Of a stretch of 64,000 nt of DNA, positions 6,934-43,724 are shown one piece after another (within the stretch, counting starts at the first letter, position 1; each line of letters opens with the position of its first letter). The stretch comes from Acidobacteriota bacterium (GTDB lineage: Bacteria; Acidobacteriota; Blastocatellia; Pyrinomonadales; Pyrinomonadaceae): positions 157 to 64,156 of the forward strand of contig JANPDK010000096.1 in assembly GCA_031431415.1 (NCBI GenBank), written 5' to 3'. The translations under genes were made by a program, and so were the position numbers. A model generated the notes under the pieces. The model saw nothing but the letters and a program-made list of their open reading frames with translations. It made no database searches and was not told the DNA's origin.

Positions 6934-7036
6934 TATTTACCGCAGAGACGCAGAGTCGCGGAGGAAAACAAAACCGCTGGAATAGACCAAATAAAATCTC
7001 ATTTGCTCTGCGTCTCGGCGTCTCTGCGGTTTTCAC
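6934..7036. repeat. word-repeat palindromic element (word GCAGAGA / TCTCTGC)
   Basis: TATTTACCGCAGAGACGCAGAGTCGCGGAGG ..loop.. TGCTCTGCGTCTCGGCGTCTCTGCGGTTTTCAC. The arms are reverse complements of each other. Confidence 0.8.
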
Positions 7037-7814
7037 TTCGCTTCACCATCGTCAACCGATTTCCGCGCTCGTTGTATTGAACCTCGTCCATGATGTTGTA
7101 GATGAAGAGAACGCCGCGACCGCTGGTTTTGAAGAGGTTTTCGGGGTCGAGCGGATCAGGAATGTTGTTCACGTCGAAGCCCTCGCCCTCGTCCTCGATG
7201 GTGAACTTGGCCTCAGCCTTTGAGACCTCGGCGATGATGCGAACCAGTTTTTGAGCGTCAAATTTATTGCCGTGTTTCACCGCATTCACAAAGGCTTCGT
7301 CGAGGGCGACAAAGAGGTTTGACTCCTCGGGTTTGATAACGCCGAGCTTTTCGACCCGTTTCATCAGATACTCGAGCACGATATGCATCGTCGAGATCGC
7401 GGACGGCAGCTCAAACTCAATATACTCGTGGAGATCGGCAACAGTCTCGATCGTATCGACAAAGCGTATCTTGTAGTCGAGCACGGTCGCGACAAGATTC
7501 TTGAGCTCTTCTTCGTCAAAATTATCACGGCGATAGTTTGAAGCACACAGCTTAAAAGCCTTTACATGCTCCTTCGCCGAGACCGCAGGAAAATCCGGCA
7601 GGCAAACAGGCTCGTCGATATTTACCGAGGCCTCGTCGCCGTGTCGCACATCGAGGTCGGTGATGACGAGGTCGTAACCTTCCATGTTCTTGATCGACAT
7701 CGCAGCACGGCGGCTATCGACGATATTGACCGTATGCCCGACGTGCATAAAAACCTCTTCGAGCGCCGTTGCGAGGTCGTCGTGGTCGTCAATGATAAGG
7801 ATTTGTCGCTGCAT
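6999..7814 (-). CDS. response-regulator receiver domain fused to RsbW-like GHKL Ser-kinase domain
   Basis: REC domain (ILIIDDHDDLA..YDLVITDLDV) plus a C-terminal HATPase of anti-sigma type (VNAVKHGN..FTIEDEGEGFD..SGRGV). The C-terminal tail SENRRDAETQSK is encoded by the repeat arm. Confidence 0.8.
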   Translation of the reverse strand: MQRQILIIDDHDDLATALEEVFMHVGHTVNIVDSRRAAMSIKNMEGYDLVITDLDVRHGDEASVNIDEPVCLPDFPAVSAKEHVKAFKLCASNYRRDNFDEEELKNLVATVLDYKIRFVDTIETVADLHEYIEFELPSAISTMHIVLEYLMKRVEKLGVIKPEESNLFVALDEAFVNAVKHGNKFDAQKLVRIIAEVSKAEAKFTIEDEGEGFDVNNIPDPLDPENLFKTSGRGVLFIYNIMDEVQYNERGNRLTMVKRSENRRDAETQSK

Positions 7815-7902
7815 AAAGCGAGGGAAAGTGCTACTGACAAGTACGATTGAGCTAATACCGTTGTTGCAAATAATACCCCAAATTGGTAGATATCTTCTAA
7901 CT

Positions 7903-8613
7903 GTGCCAGAACAAAACGATCAAGTTTATAAGTTTGTCTCGCTGTCGAACTACTCATTTAAGAAACGGGTATTGATTCGGGTCATCGATGTTGCATTCTT
8001 TTCATTCATCAAAATTCTCGGACGGCTGTCTCGATTTGAGATACAAGGGCTTGAGCGGTTCGACTCGATCATTTCTGACGGTAAGCTGCCGATCCTCGCC
8101 GTTTGGCACGACCGCATTTTGCTCTCAGGATACTTCTGGCAAAAGCGTGGTATCGGTGTCTTGATCTCGCAAAGCACTGATGGCGAGGCTATCGCACGTT
8201 CGTCTCAAAGACTTGGCTATGGTGTGATCCGCGGCTCATCATCTCGCGGAGGAGCTCAAGCTCTGGCCGACATGGTTCGCGCTATGGAGAACGGATTGCC
8301 AATGTCGATGACCGTCGATGGTCCCCGCGGACCGCGATACGTGGCAAAGATCGGCTCAGTCAGTCTTGCTAAAAAGACCGGAAACCCGATACTGCCGTTT
8401 GTAATCGAACCGAAGAAGATTTGGACATTAAAAAGCTGGGACAGAATGCAGATACCCAAACCGCTTTCGCGTGCTGTCGTCATCATCGGGCAGCCGATCT
8501 ATGTTGCTAAAGACGCATCGAGCGCGGAGGTAGAGGCAAAGCTTGGCGAACTGCAAACATCTCTCGATGATCTTGTGGAGCGCGGCAAAGCGTGGAGCGG
8601 ACGCCTGACCTAA
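7903..8613 (+). CDS. DUF374 / lysophospholipid acyltransferase family protein
   Basis: LPILAVWHDRILLSGYFWQKRGIGVLISQSTDGEAIARSSQRLGYGVIRGSSSRGG matches DUF374. The ORF-track start at 7684 overlaps the opposite-strand gene, so the in-frame GTG 7903 is taken as start (uncertain). Confidence 0.7.
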   Translation: MPEQNDQVYKFVSLSNYSFKKRVLIRVIDVAFFSFIKILGRLSRFEIQGLERFDSIISDGKLPILAVWHDRILLSGYFWQKRGIGVLISQSTDGEAIARSSQRLGYGVIRGSSSRGGAQALADMVRAMENGLPMSMTVDGPRGPRYVAKIGSVSLAKKTGNPILPFVIEPKKIWTLKSWDRMQIPKPLSRAVVIIGQPIYVAKDASSAEVEAKLGELQTSLDDLVERGKAWSGRLT

Positions 8614-9578
8614 CCGATCGCATCCTCGATCGTTTCAACCGGTTCCGCCGACAAAAAATTCGCCGCCAACAGCACATAACTGATCCAAATTGAATCAGCC
8701 AACAACAGATGCCCAAGCTGCATTACTATCGGAGCGAGCATAAAAAGCGTGGCAGAACCAACCGCTAGTTGGGCCAAAACGAGCAGCGACAGTACGTTTG
8801 ACCACCGCACCACGCCCTTTTCTTTGCCGCTCTCCTTAGCGAGCCAGCTGGTCAAGAATATCAAAAACACGCTTGTCAGGATCGCCGTGATCGGATGCAG
8901 CAGGCGTAGCCGGAGCAGAATGTTTGACGTTGGTGAAAAATCCTGTGCGACTCCTGCGGCGATCGTTCCGGCGGGAAAGATCATGTGCGAGAGAGCCGCG
9001 ATCGAACCGCTGATGCCGACAATAAACACTGCGGCCACGCCGATCGCAACCACTGCAATATACTTCTTATCGATATTCCACCTTAGTCTCGCCCCGCCAC
9101 TCGCGTATCGCGCAGTCAGCGTTAGAAACGCCAGCAAAATAAATGTGTTTATCAGATGACCAGCCATCCAAAACGGCCGTTCAGGTGTCAGGTTTTCTGC
9201 CGTGTTTCCTGTCAATACGAGTCCGGCTCCAAGCAGGCCCTCGATAATGACAAAAATAAACGATCCCACAGCCATCCGCAGCGTCAGCCGATCTTGCTCT
9301 CCTTTTTGGCGTCGCCAACGCACAAATGCCCAGATGACTAAAACAACTATCAGGACTCCGGCCATCGAGCTTGTCACCCGATGCGAGAACTCGATCAACG
9401 TTTTTATTTCAGGTGCCGACGGAACAACTTCACCGCCGCATGTCAGCCAATGCTGTCCGCAGCCGTCGCCGCTCTTTGACGCACGGAGGAAAACACCCCA
9501 CAGAATGACGATGACGTTCCACGCCACCACCAGCCACGCGTAGCGTGCAAAATTATTTAGCTTTGTAAAACCACCCAT
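8610..9578 (-). CDS. ctaA: heme A synthase (COX15/CtaA family)
   Basis: Polytopic membrane protein with GDGCGQHWLTCGG and EFSHRVTS motifs. Confidence 0.8.
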   Translation of the reverse strand: MGGFTKLNNFARYAWLVVAWNVIVILWGVFLRASKSGDGCGQHWLTCGGEVVPSAPEIKTLIEFSHRVTSSMAGVLIVVLVIWAFVRWRRQKGEQDRLTLRMAVGSFIFVIIEGLLGAGLVLTGNTAENLTPERPFWMAGHLINTFILLAFLTLTARYASGGARLRWNIDKKYIAVVAIGVAAVFIVGISGSIAALSHMIFPAGTIAAGVAQDFSPTSNILLRLRLLHPITAILTSVFLIFLTSWLAKESGKEKGVVRWSNVLSLLVLAQLAVGSATLFMLAPIVMQLGHLLLADSIWISYVLLAANFLSAEPVETIEDAIG

Positions 9579-22831: not shown

Positions 22832-24973
22832 TCAAAAGCTGCCGACGAATTCCTTTCGCTCGGATAAACCCTGCACCGCCAGCGAGATCGCGTCGATCTG
22901 GTCGTCGTGGGTACCGGTTGGGAAGGCGGCGGCTTCTTCGACGAGGTCGTGGTTCCAATGGCCGCGGATGAGGAAGACGCGTCCGGCCTCGGCGGCGGCC
23001 ATCCAGCCGATGGCCCGGGAGTGTTTGTCGCCACGCGGTTTTATCCCGCGAAGTGCACGTCCCAGAGTTTGCTTTTCGCGTCCGAGGTCCGCGAGAACGG
23101 CGTGGCCGTTGGCTGACAGCTCGACGATGTGCGATGCGCCGGGCTCGGCGGCGATACGTCCCAGGATATAACGCCGCTGCTCGGGATACTCGATCTTTCG
23201 CCGAAAACCGCCATCGATGTAAATATTCTGCTCCTTATCGACCGCCACACGAAAGCTTGCGGTGTAATCCGAAGTCGCCCCCGCCGAACAAGCCAGATCA
23301 TACGCCCGCACCCACTTCAACCCCGGCGGCGGCGCATTGATCACCTGCCTGAACCAGTCGCGTTTAAATATCCCACCCTCGGCCGGCGAAGGCCGTTGCT
23401 GATAGAGCGAAGCGAATGACCACGTGCCGATCTGTTCGCGGGTGCGTTCGAGTTCGGCAACCGGAAACCGTTCAGGCCAAAGAGCATCGCCGAAACGTCG
23501 GCCGAGTACATCAATCCCGCTCTTTGTCGCTGAAGGCGACAGAGATAATAGCCTGGGGTGAAGCCGTTTCGGCGGAACCCCAGGAACATCAGGTTCAGAG
23601 ACCTCCGCTCCCTGAAGGGGAGCAACTCGCCCCGCGCCTAGTGCGACCCCTTCAGGGTCGGGATCATCTTGGGCGGCAGACCCAGGGTTGCGGCCGTCGG
23701 CCTTACCCTGGGCGATTATCTTTGTCCCCTTCAGGGACATTTCTCCATTCTCGACTCTAAGATCGTTACCGTCTTCCCTTTCCTTCATTCTCAATTCTCC
23801 ATTCTCAATTCTCAATTGGTTCGCCGCTTCGGCGAGCGCCGGCAGATCAACCACTTCCCACTGCTCGCCGCCTTCGTCCATTTGCCGCAGCAATCTCCCG
23901 GCGAGGTCGTCTTCGTGCCAGCGGGTTTGGATGAGGACGACCTGGCCGCCGGGTTCGAGACGCGTGTAGAGGTCGTTGTTCCACCAATTCCAAACCTTGT
24001 CGCGATAGGTGAGCGAATTGGCCTGTTCGCGGTTTTTGACCGGGTCGTCAATGACGATCAGATTCGCACCGAATCCGGTAATGCCCGCTCCGACGCCAAC
24101 AGCCTTGAGCCCGCCGCCCATTGTGGTTTCCCATTCGGACTCGGTGTTCTTAAATCGAGGACGTGCGAATGGGAACGGCGAGCCGGACTCACCAGCAATT
24201 GCCGGAAGAGAAGAATTTTTGCCGCAGATGGGCGCAGATGACGCAGATCTAAGAGGTTTCTGATCTGCGCTTTCTGCGTTTATCTGCGGCAAAATCTCTT
24301 CTGCCGCCTCACGCTCCCGCGATAACATTGCGTCGTCGATCAGTACGCTCTTGATGCCGCGTGAGAATGTGTTCGCCAGCTTCTGGCCGTAGCTCGCGAT
24401 GATCGTGCGCATCGCCGGATCCTTTTTCAAACGCCACGCGGCATAGCGGACGGTGACGAGTTCGGATTTGCCGTGACGCGGCGGCATGAAGATCATCAGC
24501 CGCTTCAGATCGCCCTCGGTCATACGTCGCAAACGCTTGTAAAGATAAAGCTGATGCTTCGCCGTCCATGTCATATTCGGCGAAACAGATATGAGCCATT
24601 GTTTGAACTCGTCGTACTCTTCTTTCGCCGGATCTGGCGGAAGACAGGGAGTAGGGGAGACGGGGAGTTGGGGAGCAGGAACTGCGAACTCGGGTTGCAC
24701 AGCTTCCCCATCTCCCACACTCTCGTTCTCCCCTTCTCCCCCACTCCCCTTCTCCCCCTCTTCTTTGAGCAGCCCGTCCCAGCCGTAGCGTTCGATCCAG
24801 CCGGAGGCGGCTCGGCCGTTCTCGTAGCGTCGGTAGAGCATTCGGCGGTGAAAATCGTCGTAGCCGGCGGAGCGCATTTCGCGTTCGATCTGCTCGTGTT
24901 TTTTACCTCTGTATTTTATATAAAGCTCGCGACAAGCCTCGATACGCTCGAGGTTGCGTTCATGATCGGTCAT
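22832..24973 (-). CDS. phage terminase large-subunit-like protein, orphan, carrying in-frame repeat insertions
   Basis: Walker A IFMPPRHGKSELVT, Walker B NLIVIDDPVKN, VLIQTRWHEDDLAGRL, and C-terminal nuclease motif GTHDDQIDAISLA. The single 713-aa ORF spans three repeat elements. Confidence 0.8.
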   Translation of the reverse strand: MTDHERNLERIEACRELYIKYRGKKHEQIEREMRSAGYDDFHRRMLYRRYENGRAASGWIERYGWDGLLKEEGEKGSGGEGENESVGDGEAVQPEFAVPAPQLPVSPTPCLPPDPAKEEYDEFKQWLISVSPNMTWTAKHQLYLYKRLRRMTEGDLKRLMIFMPPRHGKSELVTVRYAAWRLKKDPAMRTIIASYGQKLANTFSRGIKSVLIDDAMLSREREAAEEILPQINAESADQKPLRSASSAPICGKNSSLPAIAGESGSPFPFARPRFKNTESEWETTMGGGLKAVGVGAGITGFGANLIVIDDPVKNREQANSLTYRDKVWNWWNNDLYTRLEPGGQVVLIQTRWHEDDLAGRLLRQMDEGGEQWEVVDLPALAEAANQLRIENGELRMKEREDGNDLRVENGEMSLKGTKIIAQGKADGRNPGSAAQDDPDPEGVALGAGRVAPLQGAEVSEPDVPGVPPKRLHPRLLSLSPSATKSGIDVLGRRFGDALWPERFPVAELERTREQIGTWSFASLYQQRPSPAEGGIFKRDWFRQVINAPPPGLKWVRAYDLACSAGATSDYTASFRVAVDKEQNIYIDGGFRRKIEYPEQRRYILGRIAAEPGASHIVELSANGHAVLADLGREKQTLGRALRGIKPRGDKHSRAIGWMAAAEAGRVFLIRGHWNHDLVEEAAAFPTGTHDDQIDAISLAVQGLSERKEFVGSF
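23521..23738. repeat. multi-hairpin palindrome, constant TGAAG/CTTCA pentaloops
   Basis: GTCGC tgaag GCGAC (23526-40). GCTCCC tgaag GGGAGC (23607-23). GACCC cttca GGGTC (23645-59). GTCCC cttca GGGAC (23724-38). Also long-range stems CCTGGGG/CCCCAGG and CCCAGGGT/ACCCTGGG. The left and right halves are reverse complements. Confidence 0.85.
23740..23814. repeat. 7-bp direct repeats ATTCTCM (x2, spacer, x4 tandem)
   Basis: Tandem ATTCTCA ATTCTCC ATTCTCA ATTCTCA at 23787-23814, and two more units at 23740-23753. In frame in the terminase-like ORF (RIENGELRM). Confidence 0.85.
24207..24300. repeat. word-repeat palindromic element (word CGCAGAT) inside the terminase-like ORF
   Basis: AAGAGAAGAATTTTTGCCGCAGATGGGCGCAGATGACGCAGATCTAAG..CTGATCTGCGCTTTCTGCGTTTATCTGCGGCAAAATCTCTT. 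Confidence 0.9.
24641..24765. repeat. word-repeat palindromic element (word GGGGAGA) inside the terminase-like ORF
   Basis: GGGAGTAGGGGAGACGGGGAGTTGGGGAGC ..loop.. CTTCCCCATCTCCCACAC..TCTCCCCTTCTCCCCCACTCCCCTTCTCCCCC. Confidence 0.8.
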
Positions 24974-25108: not shown

Positions 25109-25156
25109 ACTGGCACGGGATCAACGTAACTGATTTTCTCTCGAATTGAAATACCT

Positions 25157-27007: not shown

Positions 27008-28063
27008 ATGAATTCCACAGCCACAGAGCCAGCGACCACTATGTCGAATCAGATCTTGCAGAAGATACTCGACACGACGCGGGAGTGTGTTTTGGTGGTT
27101 GATCGCGATATGCGTATCGCCTATTGCAACGTGCCGGCGGCGGTGGCGTTTGGGCGGGATGGGTTGGATATTGAGAGTAAACGGCTTAGCGAGATGCTTC
27201 GCGATCTCGATCTGCACGATGCGTACCGCGTGGCAATCGAGACGCAAACTTCGTCGGATGTTCGGCTCGAACTAAATCGCGCTGAGAAACGGCAGTTTGA
27301 CGTTCACGTTGCACCGATCGAACTCGACGGAGCCGCATTCGCGATCGGATTTTTTTACGAGACGACGCAGATCGACCGGCTCGAACTGGTTCGTCAGGAA
27401 TTCCTCTCAAACATCTCGCACGAACTCCGCACGCCGCTCACTTCGATCCTCGCATTCGTCGAAACTCTCGAAAACGGCGCTCTTGAGGACGAGGAAAATA
27501 ACATGCGTTTCCTCGGCGTCATCCGCCGCAACGCCGAGCGGATGAGCAGCCTCATCGCCGATATTCTCGAACTGTCTTTGATCGAGTCGGGCCAGGTCTC
27601 GGTCGATATTCGCGAGGTCAAGCTCCACCTCGCCTTGACGGACGTGATGGCTGCACTCTCGTCAAAGGCCGAGGGCCGCGAGGTAACCTTGCATAACAAT
27701 GTCGCCGAGAACGCGTCGATCTGGTGCGACAGCGTTCGGCTCGAACAGATGCTGACGAACCTCATCGACAACGCCATCAAATTTAACCGCCAGAGCGGCA
27801 GCGTCACGGTCTCGCTCGAACACGCCGCAGGGACCGATAATATCTACGTCGCCGACACCGGCGAAGGAATTTTGCCCGAGCACTCTGGCCGCATCTTCGA
27901 ACGCTTTTACCGCACCGACCGCGCACGTTCGCGTGACCTCGGCGGCACCGGTCTCGGCCTCGCCATCGTCAAACACCTCGCCAAACTCCATGGCGGCGAG
28001 GTCACGCTCGTCTCGGAATTGGGGATCGGAACGACATTCAAGATCGAATTGCCCACAAGATAA
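27008..28063 (+). CDS. PAS-domain sensor histidine kinase (PhoR-like, no TM segment seen)
   Basis: H box FLSNISHELRTPLTSI, N box DNAIKFN, G1 DTGEGI, G2 GGTGLGLAIVKH. Confidence 0.9.
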   Translation: MNSTATEPATTMSNQILQKILDTTRECVLVVDRDMRIAYCNVPAAVAFGRDGLDIESKRLSEMLRDLDLHDAYRVAIETQTSSDVRLELNRAEKRQFDVHVAPIELDGAAFAIGFFYETTQIDRLELVRQEFLSNISHELRTPLTSILAFVETLENGALEDEENNMRFLGVIRRNAERMSSLIADILELSLIESGQVSVDIREVKLHLALTDVMAALSSKAEGREVTLHNNVAENASIWCDSVRLEQMLTNLIDNAIKFNRQSGSVTVSLEHAAGTDNIYVADTGEGILPEHSGRIFERFYRTDRARSRDLGGTGLGLAIVKHLAKLHGGEVTLVSELGIGTTFKIELPTR

Positions 28064-28153
28064 GAAATTTTGGCCGCGGATATGCGCCGATGGAGCGGAT
28101 AAGAAAAGATTCTTGATCTGCGCCATCTGCGCTCATCTGCGGCCAAATCTCTT
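28062..28153. repeat. word-repeat palindromic element (words CGCGGAT/CGCCGAT vs ATCTGCG)
   Basis: AAGAAATTTTGGCCGCGGATATGCGCCGATGGAGCGGATAAG..CTTGATCTGCGCCATCTGCGCTCATCTGCGGCCAAATCTCTT. It starts on the kinase stop codon. Confidence 0.9.
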
Positions 28154-28303
28154 CCGTCCCCGACAAGCCCGAAAATTTAACTACCGCGCAAAACGCTCAT
28201 CGTGCTATACTCGTATTAAATCTGCCCCTGAAGTTTTGTCCGGAAGACGTTGTTTGAACTTCCCGACCTGTCCGTTTCCCAGTTTTTTGGTAGGAGTGCG
28301 GTT

Positions 28304-32941: not shown

Positions 32942-33346
32942 CTATACAATATTTGCCTTTTCATAGTTTGCACGCACTACGGTTTTGATGTTGCCGCGCA
33001 CGTTGTAGTCGCCTTCGATCTCGACTTTTATCGGGTCACACGCCTGGACGAAGTCGTCGAGGATGAGATTGACGACGTGTTCGTGGAATATTTTGACGTC
33101 GCGGAACGAATTGATGTAGAGCTTGAGGCTCTTGAGCTCGACGCAGAGTTTGTTGGGTACATATTTCAGCCGGATCACGCCGAAATCGGGAAAATCTGAG
33201 AACGGACAGATCGCCGTGAATTCCGGTATCTCAAATTCCACCCAGATCTCTTTGCCCGGAAACTCGTAAGCAAAAGCGTCGAGCGGATAAAGATCCATCT
33301 CTTCACGCGGCGTCGGGAGGAAGTTTGTTGAGTCTATTGAGTTCAT
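32942..33346 (-). CDS. queF: NADPH-dependent 7-cyano-7-deazaguanine reductase
   Basis: [37 protein letters not shown]. The first 8 codons (MNSIDSTN) lie in a repeat arm, and an alternative start is Met17 (33298). Confidence 0.85.
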
Positions 33347-33770
33347 TGAGTTTATTGAGGTTCAGAATTTCGGAGATGCTGGGCCAGCGTCATGGACATA
33401 CGCGAGATCTCATCAAACAAGCCGTAAATTTCATCAAAGTCTTTCTGGTCAAGATAATCGAGATCGAGAGCAATATACAAGTGAGATTGAACTTCTGCGG
33501 CAGAGCCGTGCGCTTGAACTAGAAAGCTTGCAAAGTCATTATTGGTCCGTCGCCCATTTCCTTCGGCAATATTGGCCATTACCGAGACTGCCGCTCGGCG
33601 AATCTGATTGCAGAGCCCGAAATCCTTCGCGAACGCGGCATTTTTAGACACCTGATAAACGCGAACCGTTCCCACCCTCGCCTTTTGCCACGCCTTTATT
33701 TCCTCAAATCGTTTGAATCCCATATCTCAACAAACTCAATGAACTCAAAACTCAATAAACTCAACAAACT
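33323..33770. mobile_element. candidate cargo-bearing palindromic element: TTGAGTT-word arms bracketing a four-helix-bundle gene
   Basis: The left arm GTTTGTTGAGTCTATTGAGTTCATTGAGTTTATTGAGG (33323-33360) is the inverted complement of the right arm TCAACAAACTCAATGAACTCAAAACTCAATAAACTCAACAAACT (33727-33770). Confidence 0.5.
33352..33723 (-). CDS. four-helix-bundle protein (23S rRNA intervening-sequence protein family)
   Basis: [45 protein letters not shown] matches the TIGR02436-type pattern. Confidence 0.85.
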
Positions 33771-34590
33771 ATCTCACGTACCGATGTTTCCGGTTGCTCA
33801 TCTTCTTCACTCCGGCGAGGTTTTTGACTCCGCCTTCATGCAGCCGTGACAGTAGGTTGATAAATATATGCGCCGTCGCGTGCGCATCCGCGCTCGCCCG
33901 GTGGTGGTTGGTCAGGTCGAGCTTATAAAATTCCGCCATCGTTTTCAGCTTGTGATTGACCGTCTCGGGCACGAGTTTTCGCGACAATTGGACCGTACAC
34001 AGACACGGATTTGCGAGGCGATATTCTGGAAAAACGCGGCTGATCTCGTGGTTCAAAAACCGCATATCAAACCCCGAATTATGCGCCACCAGCACCGAAT
34101 CGCCTATAAATTCAAGAAAATCGACCGCGATCTCTACAAATTTCGGGGCCTCGGCCACCATTTCGTCGGTGATCCCGGTGAGCTGCGTGATGAATATCGG
34201 GATCGGTATCTCGGGGTTGACGAGCGTCTGAAACTCGTCCAACACCTCGCCGTTCTTCACCCTCCAAGCACCGATCTCGGTCACACGGCATGGTGGCGCC
34301 TTTGCTCCCGTAGTCTCGAGATCGAATACGACGAATCCCGTGTCCGACAGATCCTGATCGCCGTAACCTTTTTCAGTAAGCTCAACCGTATCACCATTTA
34401 ACGTCAGCCGAGGATCACGGTCGATAAGGTCCGAAACCAGCAAGGTCGCGAGCAACGGCTGTGGCTTTCTGATCTTCATCACAAAATCCACAACACTCAC
34501 AGCGGACGCCTTGCCGCCAAAAGACCGCAGCAGCGTCACCGTTTCGTTTATTAGCAATGACTCGGAAATTAGGTTAGGATACGGTGTCAC
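33769..34590 (-). CDS. DnaQ-like 3'-5' exonuclease with an N-terminal extension of about 90 aa
   Basis: Exo I FVVFDLETTGA, Exo II VAHNSGFDMRFL, Exo III HRASADAHATAHIF. Confidence 0.85.
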   Translation of the reverse strand: MTPYPNLISESLLINETVTLLRSFGGKASAVSVVDFVMKIRKPQPLLATLLVSDLIDRDPRLTLNGDTVELTEKGYGDQDLSDTGFVVFDLETTGAKAPPCRVTEIGAWRVKNGEVLDEFQTLVNPEIPIPIFITQLTGITDEMVAEAPKFVEIAVDFLEFIGDSVLVAHNSGFDMRFLNHEISRVFPEYRLANPCLCTVQLSRKLVPETVNHKLKTMAEFYKLDLTNHHRASADAHATAHIFINLLSRLHEGGVKNLAGVKKMSNRKHRYVR

Positions 34591-34606
34591 AAGAGAAGTT
34601 TAGCAG

Positions 34607-34637
34607 AGTTTTTTGAGTTTATTGAGTTGGTGAGTCG
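34607..34637. repeat. orphan TTGAGTT-word arm
   Basis: GAGTTTTTTGAGTTTATTGAGTTGGTGAGTC, in the same orientation as the 33323 arm. Confidence 0.7.
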
Positions 34638-34660: not shown

Positions 34661-35293
34661 ATGGACATCTTAGAGAAATTTAGAGAGACGAACGCGTTGC
34701 TCGAGGGGCATTTTATCTTGTCGAGCGGGCTGCACAGTCCGAAGTATTTGCAGTGTGCACTCGCGTTGCAGCGGCCCGAGGATGCTTTGTTGTTTGGGCG
34801 AATGATCGCGGAACGTCTTGTCGCAGCGGGGAACGATAGTGACCGGGGCTCGTCTCTAGAAAACGCACAAAGCCCCCTCGCTACCGCGTCGGGTACTGAC
34901 GCTGTTGCTTCGCCGGCGATCGGTGGGCTGGTGATCGGATTTGCCGTTGCGCAGGCATTAGGCGTTAGATTTCTCTGGACCGAGCGGCAGAATGGCGCGA
35001 TGACGTTTCGGCGGGGATTTACGCTGCGTGAAGGCGAGCGCATCTTGGTCGTCGAGGACGTGATAACAACCGGCGGCTCGACGCGCGAATGCATCGCCGC
35101 CCTCGAATCAAACGGCGGAAAGGTAGTCGCTGCAGCGTCAATCATCGACCGCTCGAATGGAACAGCCGATGTAGGAGTGCCGCGAATTTCGCTGGTCGAA
35201 ATGGACGTTCCAAGCTACTCGCCGGCCGATTGTCCAATGTGTGCCGCAGGCATCGTAGCTGTAAAACCGGGCAGTCGAGCTGCTGGTAAATAA
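34661..35293 (+). CDS. pyrE: orotate phosphoribosyltransferase
   Basis: ALLEGHFILSSGLHSPKYLQ and PRPP motif ILVVEDVITTGGS. It contains an extra low-complexity segment (NDSDRGSSLENAQSPLATASGTDAV). Confidence 0.9.
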   Translation: MDILEKFRETNALLEGHFILSSGLHSPKYLQCALALQRPEDALLFGRMIAERLVAAGNDSDRGSSLENAQSPLATASGTDAVASPAIGGLVIGFAVAQALGVRFLWTERQNGAMTFRRGFTLREGERILVVEDVITTGGSTRECIAALESNGGKVVAAASIIDRSNGTADVGVPRISLVEMDVPSYSPADCPMCAAGIVAVKPGSRAAGK

Positions 35294-35392
35294 GAAGTTT
35301 GCCCGCGAATAACGCGAATCTACACGAATAGAAGAAAAGATCTGAGATTCTTTATTCGTCTTCATTCGCGTTATTCGCGGGCAAAAATTCTT
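35292..35392. repeat. word-repeat palindromic element (word CGCGAAT)
   Basis: AAGAAGTTTGCCCGCGAATAACGCGAATCTACACGAATAGAAG..CTTTATTCGTCTTCATTCGCGTTATTCGCGGGCAAAAATTCTT. Confidence 0.95.
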
Positions 35393-35402
35393 GATCTTAA
35401 AT

Positions 35403-36257: not shown

Positions 36258-36348
36258 CTTTCTTCCTTTGCGTTTCTTTGCGAGCTTTGCGTGAGACACT
36301 CTTTTTTCACGCAAAGCTCGCGAAGGACGCAAAGAAGACGCGAAGAAG
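36258..36348. repeat. word-repeat palindromic element (word CTTTGCG / CGCAAAG)
   Basis: TTTCTTCCTTTGCGTTTCTTTGCGAGCTTTGCGTG..CACGCAAAGCTCGCGAAGGACGCAAAGAAGACGCGAAGAAG. Confidence 0.9.
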
Positions 36349-36351
36349 AAT

Positions 36352-36833: not shown

Positions 36834-36944
36834 GTTTTGCCCGCGAAATACGCGAAAAGAGCGAAAAAGGATTGTCTATATGGCGAATCTGCGGTGACTA
36901 GTCGATTTATATTCGCATTTTTCGTGTATTTCGCGGGCAAACAA
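36834..36944. repeat. word-repeat palindromic element (word CGCGAAA)
   Basis: GTTTTGCCCGCGAAATACGCGAAAAGAGCGAAAAAGG..TATATTCGCATTTTTCGTGTATTTCGCGGGCAAAC. Confidence 0.9.
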
Positions 36945-36990
36945 ATCGACAAATTTTCCAAATATCGCCAAAATTGAAACCGAACACTTA

Positions 36991-37047
36991 GTTCGCTGCT
37001 CTAAACGCTCTTATTTTTCGTAATTTTCGCGTATTTCGCGGGCAAAA
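36991..37047. repeat. orphan right arm (CGCGAAA family) abutting the truA start codon
   Basis: GTTCGCTGCTCTAAACGCTCTTATTTTTCGTAATTTTCGCGTATTTCGCGGGCAAAA, followed directly by ATG 37048. Confidence 0.8.
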
Positions 37048-37803
37048 ATGAATTTCCGACTTCTTATACAATACGACGGCACCGATTTTCATGGGTGGCA
37101 GGTGCAGGAGAATGACCGCTCTATTCAGGGCGAACTCGAGCGTGTGATAGGGATGCTGGTCGATGCTAAGGTGACCCTTCACGGCTCGGGGCGCACCGAT
37201 GCGGGCGTACACGCCGAAGGGCAGGTCGCGAATGTGCATCTGCCTGAGGGAAAGTTCACCGCGGCTAAACTCAAAAATGCGATCAACGGCAATCTGTGGC
37301 GCGACATACGCATAATGAAATGCGAGGTCGCTCCTGACGAATTTCATTCGCGGTTCTCGGCGAAGCGAAAAACTTACATCTATCGCGTCGTGAATGCACC
37401 CGTGATGTCGCCATTCTGGCGGAGGTTCGCGCACTGGGAACACCGTCCGCTCGATGTCGGGCGGATGAATGACGTCGCGAGGCTTTTCCTCGGCGAACAC
37501 GACTGGACGGCATTTGCCTCGGCAAAGGCCGACGGCGAGACGCGTGTGCGAAACGTACTCGATTTTACAGTGGAATCGCACTGGGATGACCGTGCACAGG
37601 CGACTCTTATTGAGTTTCGCATCACGGCAAACGGCTTTTTGCGCTACATGGTCCGCTCGATCGTCGGCACTATGCTCGAGGTGGGTCGAGGCGAAAAGGA
37701 AAGTGATACAATTCAGACGGCAATTATCACAGGCGACCGCAGCCTAGCGGGCAAAACGGCGACGGCGCAGGGATTGACGTTGTATAAGGTCGAATACGAC
37801 TAA
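37048..37803 (+). CDS. truA: tRNA pseudouridine(38-40) synthase
   Basis: LLIQYDGTDFHGWQVQ and the catalytic GSGRTDAGVHAEGQV. Confidence 0.95.
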   Translation: MNFRLLIQYDGTDFHGWQVQENDRSIQGELERVIGMLVDAKVTLHGSGRTDAGVHAEGQVANVHLPEGKFTAAKLKNAINGNLWRDIRIMKCEVAPDEFHSRFSAKRKTYIYRVVNAPVMSPFWRRFAHWEHRPLDVGRMNDVARLFLGEHDWTAFASAKADGETRVRNVLDFTVESHWDDRAQATLIEFRITANGFLRYMVRSIVGTMLEVGRGEKESDTIQTAIITGDRSLAGKTATAQGLTLYKVEYD

Positions 37804-38326
37804 GATTTTTTTTTGCCCGCGAAATACGCGAAAAGGACGAAAAATATTGCGTGATGTCGGAGTTGATCTGTAAGACGAGAGTTACAAGATTATTGGGGCT
37901 TGTTTTGAAGTGTACAAGCTGAAAGGGATCGGCTACACGGAACCGGTTTATCAGGAGTGTTTGAAGTATGAATTTGAGTTGCAGGGAATTCCGTTTGTTT
38001 CTCAGCCGACTTTAGAACTTGAATACAAAGGCAGGATCCTGGAACAGACGTTCAAACCGGATTTTATATGCTACGGAAAGATCGTCATCGAACTAAAAGC
38101 TCTCGAAAAATTAATAGATCCGCATCGTGCACAGGTGCTCAACTACCTGAATACGACCGGATTTGAACTGGGACTTTTAGTAAATTTCGGACATTTTCCA
38201 AGAATAGAATACGAGCGAATAGTTAACACCAAACGCCGTTCCTAAATAAGCGACAAAGAAACCGAAAGTCGCGAAAATTGAGTTTCTTCATTTAGCCCAT
38301 TTCGCGTATTTAGCGGGCAAAAAATA
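37802..38326. mobile_element. candidate cargo-bearing palindromic element: CGCGAAA-word arms bracketing a GxxExxY gene
   Basis: The left arm TTTTTTGCCCGCGAAATACGCGAAAAGGACGAAAAAT (37806-37846) closely matches the reverse complement of the right arm CATTTAGCCCATTTCGCGTATTTAGCGGGCAAAAAA (38287-38326). Confidence 0.55.
37910..38245 (+). CDS. GxxExxY protein (PD-(D/E)XK-like), N-terminus possibly disrupted
   Basis: GYTEPVY motif and KPDFICYGKIVIELKA..AQVLNYLNTTGFELGLLVNFG. The family-typical N-terminal helix (SYKIIGACFEV) is in frame upstream of GTG 37910 but is preceded by a TAA. An ATG at 37854 is in another frame. Confidence 0.7.
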   Translation: MYKLKGIGYTEPVYQECLKYEFELQGIPFVSQPTLELEYKGRILEQTFKPDFICYGKIVIELKALEKLIDPHRAQVLNYLNTTGFELGLLVNFGHFPRIEYERIVNTKRRS

Positions 38327-38328
38327 AA

Positions 38329-38643
38329 ATGCTTATCTACCACATAGTTTTACCCGAAGTGTGGGCGGCTTTTGACACCGGCCTTTACCAGCATGCGAGC
38401 CTCGATAGCGAAGGGTTTATTCATTGCAGTTTTGCCGATCAGCTTGACGGCGTGATCGAGCGTTATTATTCGAAAGAAAGCGAGGTCGTCGTGCTCGAGA
38501 TCGAAAGTGACAGGCTGATGTCGCGAATGATCAGAGAACCATCGACGAACAGCGAGATCTATCCGCACGTGTACGGGCCGATAAATCGCGATGCGATCGT
38601 TTCGGCGACCAAGAAGGATTTGCCCGCGAAACACGCGAAATAG
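38329..38643 (+). CDS. DUF952 domain protein
   Basis: IYHIV..VW..EGFIHCSFADQL pattern. The last 10 or so codons and the stop (KKDLPAKHAK*) are encoded by the next repeat arm. Confidence 0.8.
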   Translation: MLIYHIVLPEVWAAFDTGLYQHASLDSEGFIHCSFADQLDGVIERYYSKESEVVVLEIESDRLMSRMIREPSTNSEIYPHVYGPINRDAIVSATKKDLPAKHAK

Positions 38644-38720
38644 GCGAAATTTATAAAGAGGGTTGGGGAGTCTCGAATTCCTTATTTAGCTTTTTTCGCG
38701 TATTTCGCGGGCAAAAAATC
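38611..38720. repeat. word-repeat palindromic element (word CGCGAAA)
   Basis: AAGAAGGATTTGCCCGCGAAACACGCGAAATAGGCGAAATTT..TTATTTAGCTTTTTTCGCGTATTTCGCGGGCAAAAAATC, followed by ATG 38721. Confidence 0.9.
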
Positions 38721-39476
38721 ATGCTTAAGGGTTTTGAAGGCATTATCAAACCAAATACCGCCGAGGCGAAGCTGCTCGCATCTATCGATGTCGAGCGCAT
38801 GCCGAGGCATGTTGCGGTGATCATGGACGGCAACGGGCGTTGGGCTAAAGCGAAGGGGCAGCCGCGAATTTTTGGGCATCGTGCGGGTGCCGAGTCGGTC
38901 AGATCGATCATTGATACTTGTGCGCGGCTTGAGATACAGGCGGTGACGCTGTTCGCATTTTCGACGGAGAACTGGAAACGCCCGCGTGCCGAGATCCGTG
39001 CGTTAATGTCGATGCTGAAGCGGTATATTCGCACGGATCTTAAAGAAGTTCATAAGAATAATATTCGCTTTCAAGCGATCGGCCATATCGAGGGGCTTTT
39101 CGAAGACGTGCAAAAAGAGATCGCTCGCGCGACCGAGATGACCGCCGAAAACACCGGGATGGTCATGAGCGTCGCCCTCAACTACGGTGGCCGTGCCGAG
39201 ATAGTCGAGGCCGCCCGCAAAGCCGCCGCCGAGGTCGGCACCGACATCACCGAGGCCGACATCGAGCGAAACCTGTACACGCACGGTTTGCCCGACGTAG
39301 ATCTGATGATCCGCACAAGCGGCGAATTTCGTATCTCAAATTTCCTGCTGTGGCAGCTCGCCTACAGCGAGATTTACGTCACGCCAACGCTCTTCCCCGA
39401 CTTTCGCCGACCCGACATTTTCGAGGCGATACTGGATTATCAGAAGCGGGATCGGAGATTTGGAGGCGTGAAGTAA
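38721..39476 (+). CDS. uppS: isoprenyl transferase (undecaprenyl diphosphate synthase family)
   Basis: HVAVIMDGNGRWA, FAFSTENWKRP, and the C-terminal RRFGG. Confidence 0.95.
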   Translation: MLKGFEGIIKPNTAEAKLLASIDVERMPRHVAVIMDGNGRWAKAKGQPRIFGHRAGAESVRSIIDTCARLEIQAVTLFAFSTENWKRPRAEIRALMSMLKRYIRTDLKEVHKNNIRFQAIGHIEGLFEDVQKEIARATEMTAENTGMVMSVALNYGGRAEIVEAARKAAAEVGTDITEADIERNLYTHGLPDVDLMIRTSGEFRISNFLLWQLAYSEIYVTPTLFPDFRRPDIFEAILDYQKRDRRFGGVK

Positions 39477-39587
39477 GAGAAGAACTTTGGCCGCAGATCG
39501 ACGCAGATAAACGCAGATATGAAAAAGACCTAAACATCAGTTCTGATCTGTTTTTATCTGCGTTCATCTGCGGCTAAAATCTCCTTT
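39475..39587. repeat. word-repeat palindromic element (word CGCAGAT, exact 10-bp phasing)
   Basis: CGCAGAT at 39492, 39502 and 39512. ATCTG(CG) at 39546, 39556 and 39566. Flanks are AAGAGAAGAACTTTGGC and GCTAAAATCTCCTT. Confidence 0.95.
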
Positions 39588-39603
39588 CTGAAGGTCATAG
39601 ATT

Positions 39604-41203: not shown

Positions 41204-41304
41204 AGTGGTCTTTGTGTCCTCCCTTCGTGTCCTTTGTGATAAATGGTTTTGAAAAGCCTTTGTTCACAAAGTCCACAAAGGGAAGACACGGAGAGCACAA
41301 AGGA
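41204..41304. repeat. word-repeat palindromic element (word CTTTGTG / CACAAAG)
   Basis: GTGGTCTTTGTGTCCTCCCTTCGTGTCCTTTGTGA..TCACAAAGTCCACAAAGGGAAGACACGGAGAGCACAAAGG. Confidence 0.85.
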
Positions 41305-41459: not shown

Positions 41460-41466
41460 GTAAGGC

Positions 41467-41565
41467 AATTTAGCCGCAGATTTCCGCAGATGACGCGGAT
41501 CAGAATGAATTCTTGTTTAGATTCTTAATCTGCGCGATCCGCGTTAATCTGCGGCAAAAATTCTT
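41467..41565. repeat. word-repeat palindromic element (word CGCAGAT) abutting the aspS start
   Basis: TTAGCCGCAGATTTCCGCAGATGACGCGGATCAG..CTTAATCTGCGCGATCCGCGTTAATCTGCGGCAAAAATTCTT, followed by ATG 41566. Confidence 0.9.
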
Positions 41566-43410: not shown

Positions 43411-43420
43411 AAACCCAAGA

Positions 43421-43669
43421 ATGAGGATATCCACAAGAGTATTTCTGCTCGCAATTCTCACATTTGGGGTTTCTCTTGTATTTTATTTGATTGCTAGAAG
43501 TATTTGGATGGTAGACATTGAAAGGTTACAAACATCTCCGTTTTGGAATAGCACCTTGGAGATTGGTCCATACCTTAATTGGGCTCACTACACTAGCTTG
43601 GTTGTTTTTGCAGTAGGCCTGGCCATTTGCATCGCCGGAATCTGGCTACGTCGATCCGAAGACAAATAG
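43421..43669 (+). CDS. small membrane protein, hypothetical
   Basis: 82-aa ORF with two TM helices and lower GC than its neighbours. Confidence 0.45.
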   Translation: MRISTRVFLLAILTFGVSLVFYLIARSIWMVDIERLQTSPFWNSTLEIGPYLNWAHYTSLVVFAVGLAICIAGIWLRRSEDK

Positions 43670-43683
43670 TTGCAAACGGCGAC

Positions 43684-43724
43684 TTTTCTTTTCGCGTCCT
43701 TCCGCGTATTTCGCGGGCAAAATC
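43684..43724. repeat. orphan right arm (CGCGAAA family)
   Basis: TTTTCTTTTCGCGTCCTTCCGCGTATTTCGCGGGCAAAATC. Confidence 0.8.

Follow-up and report, generated by a model that had tools for sequence, protein, structure and literature searches.

Intervening sequences and heptamer repeats

Among the closest described systems to the elements reported here are the intervening sequences (IVS) of 23S rRNA, known from Leptospira, Coxiella and the Xanthomonas-type S23p, which have an inverted-repeat stem of about 28 bp or more with a PF05635 ORF in the loop, lie inside the host transcript, exist in ORF-less and ORF-bearing forms and are sporadically distributed, consistent with horizontal transfer (PMC4990558). 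In the Coxiella IVS the terminal stem around the S23p ORF is 28 bp and is cut by RNase III (PMC4990558). The palindromes of the window, by which is meant the whole 64,000-nt stretch of DNA that was analysed, appear similar in stem, loop gene, forms and distribution, but they lie between protein-coding genes rather than in 23S rRNA helices and have a second cargo family, a GxxExxY nuclease. The present arms are visibly made of tandem words.

The STRR sequences of cyanobacteria reportedly include CCCCAGT, TTGGTCA and CAACAGT, as given by Mazel et al. in 1990. STRR (short tandemly repeated repetitive) elements consist of roughly 7-nt units repeated in tandem between genes and capable of forming hairpins, and for those between hupS and hupL stabilisation of the transcript or coupling of translation has been proposed (PMC2670836). 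CAACAGT repeats (locus L141) and CCCCAGT (L196) recur in arms linked to IVP genes, as the Avd-like PF05635 genes are called here, whilst the main family of the window differs in its period of 9-10 nt and its CRCNRAW words.

The GGGAATC heptamers of Xanthomonas and the GGGGA(C/T)T heptamers of Nostoc have been interpreted as G4 elements, with enclosed genes unmentioned (PMC4692102). The units preferably number about four and are overrepresented between aligned ORFs, with the G-rich copy after a stop codon and the C-rich copy ahead of the next ORF; most Xanthomonas copies are transcribed, and each genome contains 70-75 pairs in convergent, inverted orientation (PMC4692102). The GGGGAGN words at 24641-24760 of the window resemble the Nostoc heptamer and a Xanthomonas GGGAATC pair was found here to enclose an IVP gene between accB and accC, but most window words (CGCGAAW, CGCAGAT) cannot form G4. 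The TAACTGA repeats of Beggiatoaceae, Cyanobacteria and Bacteroidetes are intergenic arrays of 2-6 heptamers ending a few nt from start codons, with a cross-phylum distribution suggesting horizontal transfer (PMC4679880). The TAACTAA/TAACTG words at 24985-25112 are near to these, although the published sets are direct in 169 cases and inverted in only one, and were described without a hairpin or an associated gene (PMC4679880).

REP/BIME with RAYT and MITEs such as Correia and ERIC are also multi-copy intergenic palindromes within operons, but the window elements have no GTAG or CGTC tag, are 90-165 nt rather than 20-40 nt, have no RAYT or IS transposase partner and no target-site duplication, and share words rather than whole-length identity. 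An earlier note on this DNA, made from the letters alone, had read the palindromes as not CRISPR and could not place them in REP/BIME, ERIC, RPE, Correia or HIP1, which is supported as regards CRISPR and REP, but it overlooked the STRR, GGGAATC/GGGGAYT and TAACTGA heptamer repeats (PMC2670836, PMC4692102, PMC4679880). By this comparison of design the window palindromes resemble both rRNA intervening sequences and the heptamer repeats of cyanobacteria and Xanthomonas. Repeats of the heptamer kind are known but unexplained, and what is added here is the tie between such hairpins and the IVP or GxxExxY genes they enclose; a literature search found no published link between these genes and such repeats, STRR included.

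The palindromes of the window

The palindromes are a real multi-copy family with matching words in both arms, filling the gaps between housekeeping genes. Two of them are gene-bearing cassettes, compared to about 13 gene-less palindromes and 3 single arms. The features are as follows, a strand being assigned to the gene-bearing cassettes only and folding given as kcal/mol with z.

6934..7035, gene-less palindrome, CGCAGAG three times per arm, arms 29 nt and 86% complementary; -47.1, z -7.5
24205..24305, gene-less palindrome, CGCAGAT three times, outer flank AGAAGAATTTTTGCC; -60.9, z -9.0
24641..24760, gene-less inverted pair, GGGGAGN words against C-rich words, generic hairpin matches at 24646-24757; the words include GGGGAGT, so a GAGT core is present
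24985..25112, weaker gene-less palindrome, TAACTAA / AGTTAnn, period about 7; -28.6, z -3.3
25222..25326, gene-less palindrome, CGCGAAT, arms 24 nt and 100% complementary; -62.4, z -14.4
26833..26997, gene-less palindrome, CGCAGAT, loop 78 nt, between response-regulator and histidine-kinase genes
28062..28156, gene-less palindrome, CGCGGAT/CGCCGAT against CGCAGAT, beginning on the kinase stop codon; -53.4, z -8.2
33322..33771, minus strand, gene-bearing IVP cassette, 5' arm 33771-33726 (four to five GAGTT words), gene 33723-33352, 3' arm 33362-33322
34605..34637, orphan single arm, GAGTT words, read from the sequence
35292..35394, gene-less palindrome, CGCGAAT, ortholog in relative L043; -51.2, z -9.7
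36258..36350, gene-less palindrome of opposite polarity, CTTTGCG ... CGCAAAG, from 7 nt past a stop codon to 1 nt short of an ATG; -52.7, z -8.5
36834..37047, CGCGAAA palindrome (36834-36941) with a second, orphan right arm (37014-37047) ending at the truA ATG
37802..38322, plus strand, gene-bearing PDDEXK_3 cassette, left arm about 37812-37845 (CGCGAAA), gene 37854-38245, right arm about 38285-38322
38611..38720, gene-less palindrome, CGCGAAA, left arm containing the DUF952 stop codon and right arm ending 5 nt from the uppS ATG; -47, z -6.8
39475..39590, gene-less palindrome, CGCAGAT, between uppS and cdsA; -52.6, z -9.1
41204..41300, gene-less palindrome of opposite polarity, CTTTGTG ... CACAAAG, from sequence reading and generic hairpin matches
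41464..41565, gene-less palindrome, CGCAGAT, between the aspS leader terminator and the aspS ATG (41566); -40.8, z -5.4
43688..43722, orphan single right arm, TTTCGCG words and then GGGCAAAA

When an arm was defined as three 7-mers with at most 1 mismatch at a period of 9-12, 20 tandem-word arms were detected in the window, whereas 30 dinucleotide-preserving shuffles gave 0.1 on average and never more than 1. An inverted-repeat search recovered arms of 24-43 nt, 78-100% complementary, at 6939, 24209, 25230, 26834, 28069, 35298, 36276, 36836, 38619, 39486 and 41469. Reading of the sequence added the pairs at 24641-24760 (G-rich/C-rich), 24985-25112 (AGTTA words) and 41204-41300, the gene-flanking pairs 33322-33362/33726-33771 and 37812-37845/38285-38322, and lone arms at about 34605, 37014 and 43688. 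Of the orphan arms listed in the earlier note, that at 25157 does not convince.

Ten elements folded as RNA gave -28.6 to -62.4 kcal/mol (z -3.3 to -14.4), with every shuffle folding less well, and Rfam gave nothing at gathering thresholds, an E-value search returning only sub-threshold generic miRNA-hairpin matches. In 75 elements aligned in the CRCNRAW register 167 cells are changed on both sides yet still pair, against 107 that are broken and 42 that are G-T, and the 149 non-complementary cells increase to 359 on average (never fewer than 315 in 200 permutations) when right arms are permuted among elements. The co-variation of arms noticed earlier is thus confirmed.

Words and spacers

The earlier note had described a single design with a variable word, repeated about every 10 bp, perhaps in phase with the helix. 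The arm-loop-arm layout does recur, but at least two classes are mixed, CRCNRAW words with a AAGAnnTTTGCC outer flank and GAGTY/AGTT words, and polarity, which is nearly fixed with the purine/G-rich arm first, is reversed in the window at 36258 and 41204. The words do differ between copies, but in the CRCNRAW (class B) word C1, C3 and A6 are almost invariant whilst positions 2, 4, 5 and 7 co-vary. The spacing is near to that claimed but has no fixed value of 10, being 9-10 nt in the CRCNRAW elements of the window, and helical phasing is not supported, as this period holds in one class only, the 68 IVP-linked arms having a period of 7 (30 arms), 8 (14), 9 (22) or 10 (2).

Identity among words is 88.5% between the two arms and 93% inside a single arm, whilst the spacers between them are 55% identical between arms, with the inner spacer at 42% against a within-arm baseline of 44%; the spacers are not complementary and are unequal in length in 22% of cases. 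The 21-mer TTTGCCCGCGAAWWACGCGAA is common to Acidobacteriota, Verrucomicrobiota, Planctomycetota and Lentisphaerota. With words conserved, spacers drifted and this 21-mer identical across phyla the primary sequence is constrained, contrary to the proposal that pairing was selected rather than primary sequence. Nor does the hint of plus-strand RNA function from G-U pairs hold, as neither count of G-U versus A-C mismatches on the sense strand is significant (30 vs 18, p=0.11; 76 vs 68, p=0.56), and transversions are as frequent as transitions among arm mismatches.

Copies within one genome have words in common but not loops or spacers, and as they share words alone there is no sign of recent bursts. 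Recurrent 7-mers are common to 80% of pairs at 80% protein identity or above and to 10% at 50-65%, so that words diverge about as fast as the protein, as common descent alone would produce.

Genes enclosed by the arms

Arms around whole genes had been noted before and two such pairs stand, but the genes had been left unidentified and they are the main clue. The first is an IVP gene (PF05635 23S_rRNA_IVP, E=8.4e-36; TIGR02436; PDB 2gsc, E=1e-12). Of 80 IVP genes fetched from metagenomes 64 had enough flank to be surveyed, and 59 of these (92%) lie between inverted arms of GAGTY words with a period of 7-9 nt. The best upstream/downstream inverted repeat of the 64 has a median score of 19.5, whilst decoy positions have a median of 8.5 and never score above 12, and 92% of the genes score above the 95th decoy percentile. 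These arms have Y at 97% and a median of 4 AGT-core words each. The left arm begins a median of 5 nt after the end of the upstream ORF, and the upstream neighbour is co-directional in 42 of 51 cases and the downstream neighbour in 28 of 51. Xanthomonas and Stenotrophomonas relatives of the IVP-family protein XCC0516 (PDB 2gsc) are encoded between accB and accC, enclosed by GGGAATC / GATTCCC arms extending as far as the accC ATG. No flanking 23S rRNA signatures were found at the IVP loci fetched.

The second gene, at 37854-38245, belongs to PDDEXK_3 (PF13366, GxxExxY; E=9.4e-33), the window copy being frameshifted by a 1-nt deletion after codon 6. All relatives examined (48-90% identity), including two IMG/VR contigs, have arms of [CT][GA]CGAAA words with a period of 9-10 nt, and in Bythopirellula (L013), where the protein is 51% identical, the 21-mer is better conserved than the protein. 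The catalytic residues D70, E80 and K82 do not vary in an 8-sequence alignment; in an alignment of 36 sequences E80 is again invariant, whilst D70/K82 show at least 90% conservation. In fold the protein comes nearest to Cas4, lambda exonuclease, RecE and Hjc.

A palindrome of Verrucomicrobia (L059) retains the first 13 or so PDDEXK_3 codons. Coding remnants in 45 gene-less loops are no commoner than in shuffles (17 vs 13 matches), thus most gene-less copies are not demonstrably recent deletions. The CGCAGAT family was never found enclosing an IVP or PDDEXK_3 gene among 170 left arms in 120 IMG/VR stretches, about 1 Mb in all.

Placement and turnover in orthologous spacers

An element typically spans the interval between the stop codon upstream and the start codon that follows. 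Measured in 69 gene-less elements flanked by co-directional ORFs, the stop codon lies a median of 15 nt from the first word, and the last word a median of 22 nt (mode 11-14) from the first in-frame start codon, distances that match the 13-nt paired outer flank. Canonical hairpin-plus-T-run terminators are used in the same genomes as well, for example in the aspS leader.

Comparison with relatives reveals that presence varies. The truA-DUF952 spacer has a gene-bearing cassette in the window and L067, a gene-less palindrome in L043, L042 and L089, and nothing in L038, and two further orthologous spacers have palindromes with different words among relatives. The uppS-cdsA palindromes are built of CGCAGAT, ACAGGAT or CGCGAAT words, even though the UppS proteins of the window and L043 share 96% identity. 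Upstream of aspS relatives have a PDDEXK_3 cassette and the window a gene-less palindrome (41464..41565). Orthologous copies have kept their words where the loops can no longer be aligned and the DNA of the flanking genes is about 81% identical, and in the 35292 palindrome and its L043 ortholog the words are kept whilst the loop is wholly diverged. Cassettes occupy different spacers in relatives, nested and orphan arms occur, and L038 and L042 have spacers without any element.

Origin and role of the palindromes

The best explanation, to which we give an about even chance of being correct, is that the palindromes are IVS-type cassettes and their gene-less forms, tolerated as the RNA stem would loop out the insert. 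The design would be that of the ORF-bearing IVS of 23S rRNA, here placed in spacers between protein-coding genes. A full cassette would comprise one arm with 3-5 words in tandem, a very small gene for either an Avd-like four-helix-bundle protein (PF05635) or a GxxExxY PD-(D/E)XK nuclease (PF13366), and the reverse-complement arm, the majority of window copies consisting of arm, short loop and arm without a gene. The cassette may be transcribed within the host operon, its arms pairing as a stem of 30-45 bp, in which 7-bp helices alternate with small internal loops and which would loop out the insert and bring the upstream stop codon and the downstream start codon together. Operon expression could then be kept via translational coupling and/or RNase III processing, as the 23S rRNA helix survives an IVS. 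With tandem words a stem could most easily grow longer, through slippage in both arms, and the word cores of each class would travel with the gene, GAGTY with IVP and CRCNRAW/CGAAA with PDDEXK_3. Being gained, lost or replaced at the same spacers over short evolutionary distances and found across phyla, the cassettes behave as selfish or semi-domesticated mobile DNA. This reading is supported by the PF05635 and PF13366 genes in the two gene-enclosing pairs, the arms of both gene classes, the accB-accC loci, the variable orthologous spacers, the stop-to-start placement, the strong stems, the PDDEXK_3 codons retained in L059 and the published findings on the Coxiella IVS, the hupS-hupL STRR and the Xanthomonas repeats (PMC4990558, PMC2670836, PMC4692102). 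Counting against it are the loop remnants at shuffle level, the gene-less CGCAGAT family, the lack of 23S rRNA signatures at IVP loci and the near-fixed polarity, which stem stability alone does not explain.

Further points that count against the cassettes being RNA stems, namely G-U pairs not in excess, spacers non-complementary and 22% unequal in length, and a near-invariant C1, C3 and A6 with a 21-mer in at least four phyla that pairing alone does not predict, suit an unlikely but serious alternative in which the arms are recognition arrays in DNA. Each word would be bound by a sequence-specific protein (the GxxExxY nuclease or IVP pentamer of the cassette itself, or else a transposase), the arms would be multi-site terminal inverted repeats like the ends of Tn7 or Mu or the tandem operators of omega/MetJ type, the gene-less copies non-autonomous (MITE-like) elements or homing targets, and the word variants co-evolving specificities. 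Conserved words beside unconserved spacers, co-varying positions 2, 4, 5 and 7, a word core specific to gene class, a 21-mer that outlasts its protein in Bythopirellula, the conserved catalytic residues and the fold of the nuclease, and the different spacers occupied with nested or orphan arms all favour it. However, it needs two unrelated small proteins as readers, one of them a non-enzymatic helical bundle, the 7-10 nt period is not tied to the helical repeat, and neither target-site duplication nor recent bursts are seen. Word divergence tracks protein divergence as expected from descent alone, no cognate gene of the CGCAGAT family turned up in about 1 Mb of IMG/VR loci, and the window nuclease is frameshifted.

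It is rather improbable that the repeats serve the host, comparable to REP/BIME, as mRNA stabilisers, translational couplers, or G-quadruplex or nucleoid sites, with IVP and PDDEXK_3 genes as secondary insertions preferring hairpin loops. Gene-less copies do far outnumber gene-bearing ones, the CGCAGAT family of the IMG/VR stretches is always gene-less, elements within essential operons abut start codons, orthologous words outlive their loops (35292), the Xanthomonas repeats reportedly form G4 and are transcribed (PMC4692102), and a part in translation has been proposed for TAACTGA repeats (PMC4679880). Yet class-specific arms at 92% of IVP and all PDDEXK_3 genes examined fit co-inheritance better than opportunistic insertion, different word families replace one another at one site, and the element-free spacers of the close relatives L038 and L042 make the hairpin dispensable.

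Less probable still is a neutral by-product, in which slippage and template switching at hairpins make and homogenise functionless tandem-word palindromes. It would account for the tandem structure, the variable unit number, the orphan and nested arms and the absent G-U bias, but not for words 93% identical within arms beside spacers at the 44% baseline, words kept in orthologs with unalignable loops, precise stop-to-start placement, fixed polarity or the same words recurring across phyla; the data already point to word substitution below that of synonymous sites and spacers. Terminators or attenuators lacking a U-tract are hardly credible, for although strong hairpins lie directly 3' of stop codons, no T-run follows on either strand and a consensus terminator scan calls none of the elements, in agreement with the earlier note, whilst the same genomes have the canonical type (as in the aspS leader) and elements lie inside operons needing co-transcription (accB-accC, response regulator-kinase).

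Some of the spacers compared here hold, in L067, a true RAYT gene with a REP array.

Gene-bearing palindromes and their proteins

The chief clue to the palindromes comes from their surroundings, as two arm pairs enclose whole genes and the genes are not arbitrary ones:

33352-33723, minus strand: IVP gene (PF05635, E=8.4e-36; TIGR02436; PDB 2gsc, E=1e-12)
37854-38245, plus strand: GxxExxY nuclease gene (PF13366 PDDEXK_3; TIGR04256)

The IVP protein is related to XCC0516, which has been solved as a pentamer (PDB 2gsc), and, by PMC10053308, to the DGR protein Avd. Residues D70, E80 and K82 of the nuclease are invariant in an eight-sequence alignment (A2), with an AlphaFold model (pLDDT 92) having Cas4, lambda exonuclease, RecE and Hjc as its nearest folds. 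Neither cargo gene is a known transposase, and protein searches return well over 5,000 relatives for each, under the family names "four helix bundle" and "GxxExxY". Relative to the syntenic locus L067, the nuclease gene of the window lacks 1 nt after codon 6 (37854-37925), which leads to a stop after 22 codons, this copy being either a pseudogene, an assembly error or the source of a truncated product from GTG 37910.

Folding and co-variation of the arms

A repeat search of the window listed 11 strong short-range inverted repeats, with arms of 24-43 nt that are 78-100% complementary, and further elements were recognised by reading the sequence. A detector of arms (three 7-mers, at most one mismatch, period 9-12) found 20 in the window, 18 of them within 24-44 kb, whereas 30 dinucleotide-preserving shuffles gave 0.1 on average and never more than 1. 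When 10 elements were folded as RNA the predicted stems were 30-45 bp, with energies of -28.6 to -62.4 kcal/mol and z-scores of -3.3 to -14.4. By search, detector and folding alike the palindrome family proposed in the earlier note is real, and its arms do co-vary as was claimed: in an alignment of 75 elements on the CRCNRAW register (CGCAGAT, CGCGAAW and similar words) 167 cells are changed on both sides and still paired, 107 are broken and 42 are G-T, and the count of non-complementary cells, 149 in the real set, becomes about 359 when the right arms are permuted among elements. Other parts of that description need revision. The loci listed as sharing one design are a mixture of classes, the orphan arm at 25157 is unconvincing, the word spacing in the window is 9-10 nt and not a fixed 10, and the supposedly variable word is nearly invariant at C1, C3 and A6.

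Arms around the same genes in other genomes

Arms of this kind are not limited to the window. IVP genes that are 48-85% identical were taken from metagenome contigs (80 genes), and for the 64 with enough flank the 220 nt on one side were compared with the 220 nt on the other and the best inverted repeat was scored. The median score was 19.5. Decoys at other positions within the same loci had a median of 8.5 and scored no higher than 12, and 92% of the 64 genes exceeded the decoy 95th percentile. The arms are series of tandem words that share a conserved core, G-A-G-T-Y (Y at 97%), with a median of 4 AGT-core words per arm, and have a period of 7 (30 arms), 8 (14), 9 (22) or 10 (2), the main class of the window having a period of 9-10 and variable spacers. 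As the period spans 7 to 10, the phasing of words with the helix that had been suggested is no general feature. Around the nuclease the picture is similar, all PDDEXK_3 relatives examined (48-90% identity, including two IMG/VR contigs) lie between arms of [CT][GA]CGAAA words with a period of 9-10 nt; a scan of viral contigs for PDDEXK_3 gave 2 loci only. Long-range arm pairs number 64, of which 32 enclose IVP genes and 14 PDDEXK_3 genes; further cargo families were rejected, the remaining 18 being mostly neighbouring half-elements that flank host genes.

The XCC0516 sequence, taken from the PDB alignment, led to relatives in Xanthomonas and Stenotrophomonas (L328-L332), 82-86% identical in Xanthomonas, which sit between accB and accC in an essential operon. 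Upstream of this IVP gene is the arm GGGAATCGGGAGTGGAGAATCGGGAATCGG and downstream the arm CCCATTCCCCATTCCCGACTCCCTATTCCC, which ends exactly at the accC ATG. Both arms belong to the GGGAATC repeats which Rehm et al. presented as G-quadruplex elements; by their account each genome has 70-75 inverted pairs in convergent orientation (PMC4692102).

Turnover of the sites

The elements of the window adjoin housekeeping genes (truA, uppS, cdsA, aspS, a response regulator with its kinase), and the closest syntenic loci are from Pyrinomonadaceae MAGs, the window itself being Pyrinomonadaceae-like acidobacterial DNA.

Occupancy of three spacers in the window and in syntenic loci (L-numbers)
truA-DUF952: window and L067, nuclease cassette; L043, L042 and L089, gene-less CGCGAAW palindrome; L038, nothing
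uppS-cdsA: window, CGCAGAT; L043, ACAGGAT (UppS 96% identical); L038, CGCGAAT; L067 (2760-3660), putative RAYT ORF with a REP hairpin array of CCACCCGCTGACGCAGGTGG units
queF-RNase T: window, IVP cassette; L043, GAATTAC x4 palindrome; L042, nothing

Gene-less and gene-bearing forms share sites, and the sites turn over. Just upstream of aspS, where a gene-less CGCAGAT palindrome sits in the window, at least 8 other genomes have a nuclease cassette. In the uppS-cdsA spacer of L067 the occupant is a palindromic element of another class, and an exact-match look-up of CdsA returned no match. The 35292 palindrome and its ortholog in L043 have kept their words, with loops and spacers that cannot be aligned. 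Coding remnants in the loops are no commoner than in shuffled loops and the cases are anecdotal, namely a borderline match at window 36842-37047 and a CGCGAAA palindrome in a Verrucomicrobia MAG (L059, 3922-4100, minus strand). The loop of the latter begins ATGGGCAATATAATATACAAAGAAGAATCATTTAAGATT (MGNIIYKEESFKI), the first ~13 codons of a GxxExxY protein N-terminus, after which comes a deletion.

At least 119 stretches, of acidobacterial, verrucomicrobial, planctomycete and lentisphaeral origin (Acidobacteriota, Verrucomicrobiota, Planctomycetota, Lentisphaerota), contain the 21-mer TTTGCCCGCGAAWWACGCGAA, and at least 120 IMG/VR stretches (L208-L327) the CGCAGAT triplet, nearly always as gene-less hairpins; no cognate or cargo gene for the CGCAGAT family was found in these 120 stretches. 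On contigs classed as viral there are several CGCAGAT palindromes per contig, with an outer flank that often reads ATC directly before CGCAGAT.

Placement between genes and the level of action

Of 51 IVP genes, 42 have a co-directional upstream neighbour, with the left arm starting a median of 5 nt past the end of that neighbour, and only 28 have a co-directional downstream neighbour. Where gene-less elements lie between co-directional ORFs, the median distance from the stop codon to the first word is 15 nt, and from the last word to the first in-frame start codon it is 22 nt (mode 11-14). These distances match the paired 13-nt outer flank, thus the base of the stem sets the stop codon beside the start codon.

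Whether the elements act as RNA or as DNA has mixed evidence. An RNA role is favoured by the co-orientation with the upstream gene, the stop-to-start placement and the location inside operons that must be co-transcribed, with the cutting of 23S rRNA intervening sequences (IVS) by RNase III counted as a precedent (PMC4990558). Hairpins of the short tandemly repeated repetitive heptamers (STRR) had also been proposed to stabilise transcripts or couple translation (PMC2670836). Against a purely RNA-pairing role are five observations. There is no significant excess of G-U over A-C mismatches on the sense strand in either of two sets (76 vs 68, p=0.56; 30 vs 18, p=0.11), and the G-U hint of RNA-level function in the earlier note is not supported. 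The spacers between words are non-complementary, the inner spacer being 42% identical between arms against a baseline of 44% and 22% of spacers differing in length; word identity is 88.5% between arms and 93% within arms. C1, C3 and A6 are nearly invariant, the elements have a polarity, with the purine/G-rich arm almost always first, and the period varies from 7 to 10.

Comparison with known elements

The described relatives are 23S rRNA IVS, the short tandemly repeated repetitive heptamers (STRR) of cyanobacteria, the GGGAATC/GGGGAYT repeats and the TAACTGA repeats. As in IVS, the element is closed off by a long stem of terminal inverted repeats, and as in the large forms of IVS the loop may carry a PF05635 (S23p) ORF, here 33352-33723 on the minus strand. 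IVS, however, are inserted in helix 9, 25 or 45 of 23S rRNA, whereas these elements lie between protein-coding genes; there are no rRNA, tRNA or tmRNA genes in the window, and no convincing 23S signature in L001-L199, where two long conserved 23S motifs found no match and the few matches to 15-16-nt 23S motifs, with up to 2 mismatches allowed, look fortuitous. STRR share the many intergenic copies, often beside start or stop codons, and the capacity to form hairpins. Their units are head-to-tail and 7 nt long, and the IVP-linked arms have periods of 7, 8, 9 or 10. The convergent arrays of Xanthomonas, with about 4 GGGAATC units between aligned ORFs, have the same architecture and a word that is absent from the window.

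A REP/RAYT identity was rejected on length, flanks and RAYT association, as REP/BIME are palindromes of 20-40 nt with a GTAG or CGTC tag and the present elements are 90-165 nt with flanks AAGAnnTTTGCC. No RAYT (IS200-like Y1) gene was found among the Pfam-scanned ORFs, covering about 23-44 kb of the window, and the L067 ORF read as RAYT from its sequence is flanked by a different repeat, CCACCCGCTGACGCAGGTGG. Integron attC sites were rejected because the neighbours are housekeeping genes and the GTTRRRY core is absent. The Rfam check that had been asked for returned no family at gathering thresholds, an E-value search giving sub-threshold miRNA-precursor models only.

Possible origins

The explanation favoured, with about an even chance of being correct, is that these are IVS-type cassettes together with gene-less forms. 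Cassettes would be carried inside host transcripts, where the stem would loop out the insert and rejoin stop and start, allowing the cassette to be tolerated, and a founder word, duplicated in tandem on both sides, would have given rise to the full arms.

The main rival, which is possible though clearly less probable, holds that the cassette proteins, or an unknown transposase, recognise the words as their sites, in which case the elements would be TIR/MITE-like or homing elements. As protein distance grows, fewer pairs share words, from 80% of pairs at 80% identity or above to 10% at 50-65%. This fits either view, as common descent predicts such a fall and the test therefore cannot separate binding from descent. 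MITE-like inverted repeats are present, and no direct duplication of flanks was seen at sites that lack a cleanly alignable empty counterpart. MITE copies are near-identical over their whole length and derive from an IS encoding a transposase, whereas the copies here share words and outer flank only and their cargo genes are no known transposases.

The other readings fit less well than these two. Repeats that serve the host are unlikely, and neutral products of slippage, for all the tandem build of the arms, are improbable. Terminators are the least credible: intrinsic terminators were rejected in agreement with the earlier note, as the U-tract is absent and the 3' flank reads GGCAAAAAnnTCTT, and in a scan of the window terminator-like and promoter-like matches were at shuffle-level numbers and did not coincide with elements.

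Short tandem repeats such as STRR have been a puzzle since 1990. Three literatures, on 23S IVS with an S23p ORF, on STRR and heptamer repeats, and on the four helix bundle and GxxExxY families, were unconnected in the papers searched, which gave no link from such repeats to PF05635 or PF13366 genes; older literature was thinly covered and this absence is no proof. The present data join them, in that the genes routinely lie between inverted arrays of short tandem words, and such arrays also survive as hairpins without a gene, filling the spacers of operons from stop to start, even within accB-accC. What is new is the word family, the host phyla and the tie to cargo genes. A more speculative reading, possible but less probable than not, is that STRR, the GGGAATC-type repeats of Xanthomonas and Nostoc, TAACTGA and acidobacterial/PVC CRCNRAW repeats are all arms or remains of a single widespread class of mobile mini-cassette. 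Its cargo, an Avd-like pentamer or a GxxExxY nuclease, would then recognise the words by sequence and promote their spread, through homing or transposition, both to intergenic spacers and to rRNA, in which such cassettes go by the name of IVS.

Annotation and other observations

The repeats also bear on annotation and on operon and UTR models, as gene callers extend ORFs into the arms. GxxExxY gene calls of 140-150 aa are an example, many such database proteins being called 10-20 residues too long by running into arms. Similar overlaps occur in the window:

22832-24973, minus strand: 713-aa ORF with T4-type terminase large-subunit domains at residues 281-700
38619-38643: left arm of the 38611 element, within which the DUF952 stop codon falls
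43670-43722: start of the ORF 43670-44407, upstream of an orphan arm

The N-terminal 280 codons of the terminase-like ORF are free of domains and cross the palindromes at 24205-24305 and 24641-24760, thus its true start is probably near 24150; the ORF may be a remnant of a prophage or GTA.

Upstream of aspS (41566), about 105 nt on the plus strand (41353-41458) are 89-90% identical in L067 and L038, exceeding the adjacent coding DNA, and 81% identical in L003. The stretch holds a 12-codon ORF, MNAVRFDDNNNT*, in which Asp and Asn codons form a run, then a GC-rich hairpin and T-run, and resembles a leader-peptide attenuator of the kind expected for aspartyl-tRNA synthetase. Between the terminator of this leader and the aspS ATG lies the palindrome, or in relatives the nuclease cassette. 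A further GC-rich inverted repeat at 50727-50908 (GGCATATAGCCCCGTCCTTTAGGGCGGGG / CCCGCCCTAAAGGGACGGGGCTATGTGCC) resembles REP and has no relation to the tandem-word family.
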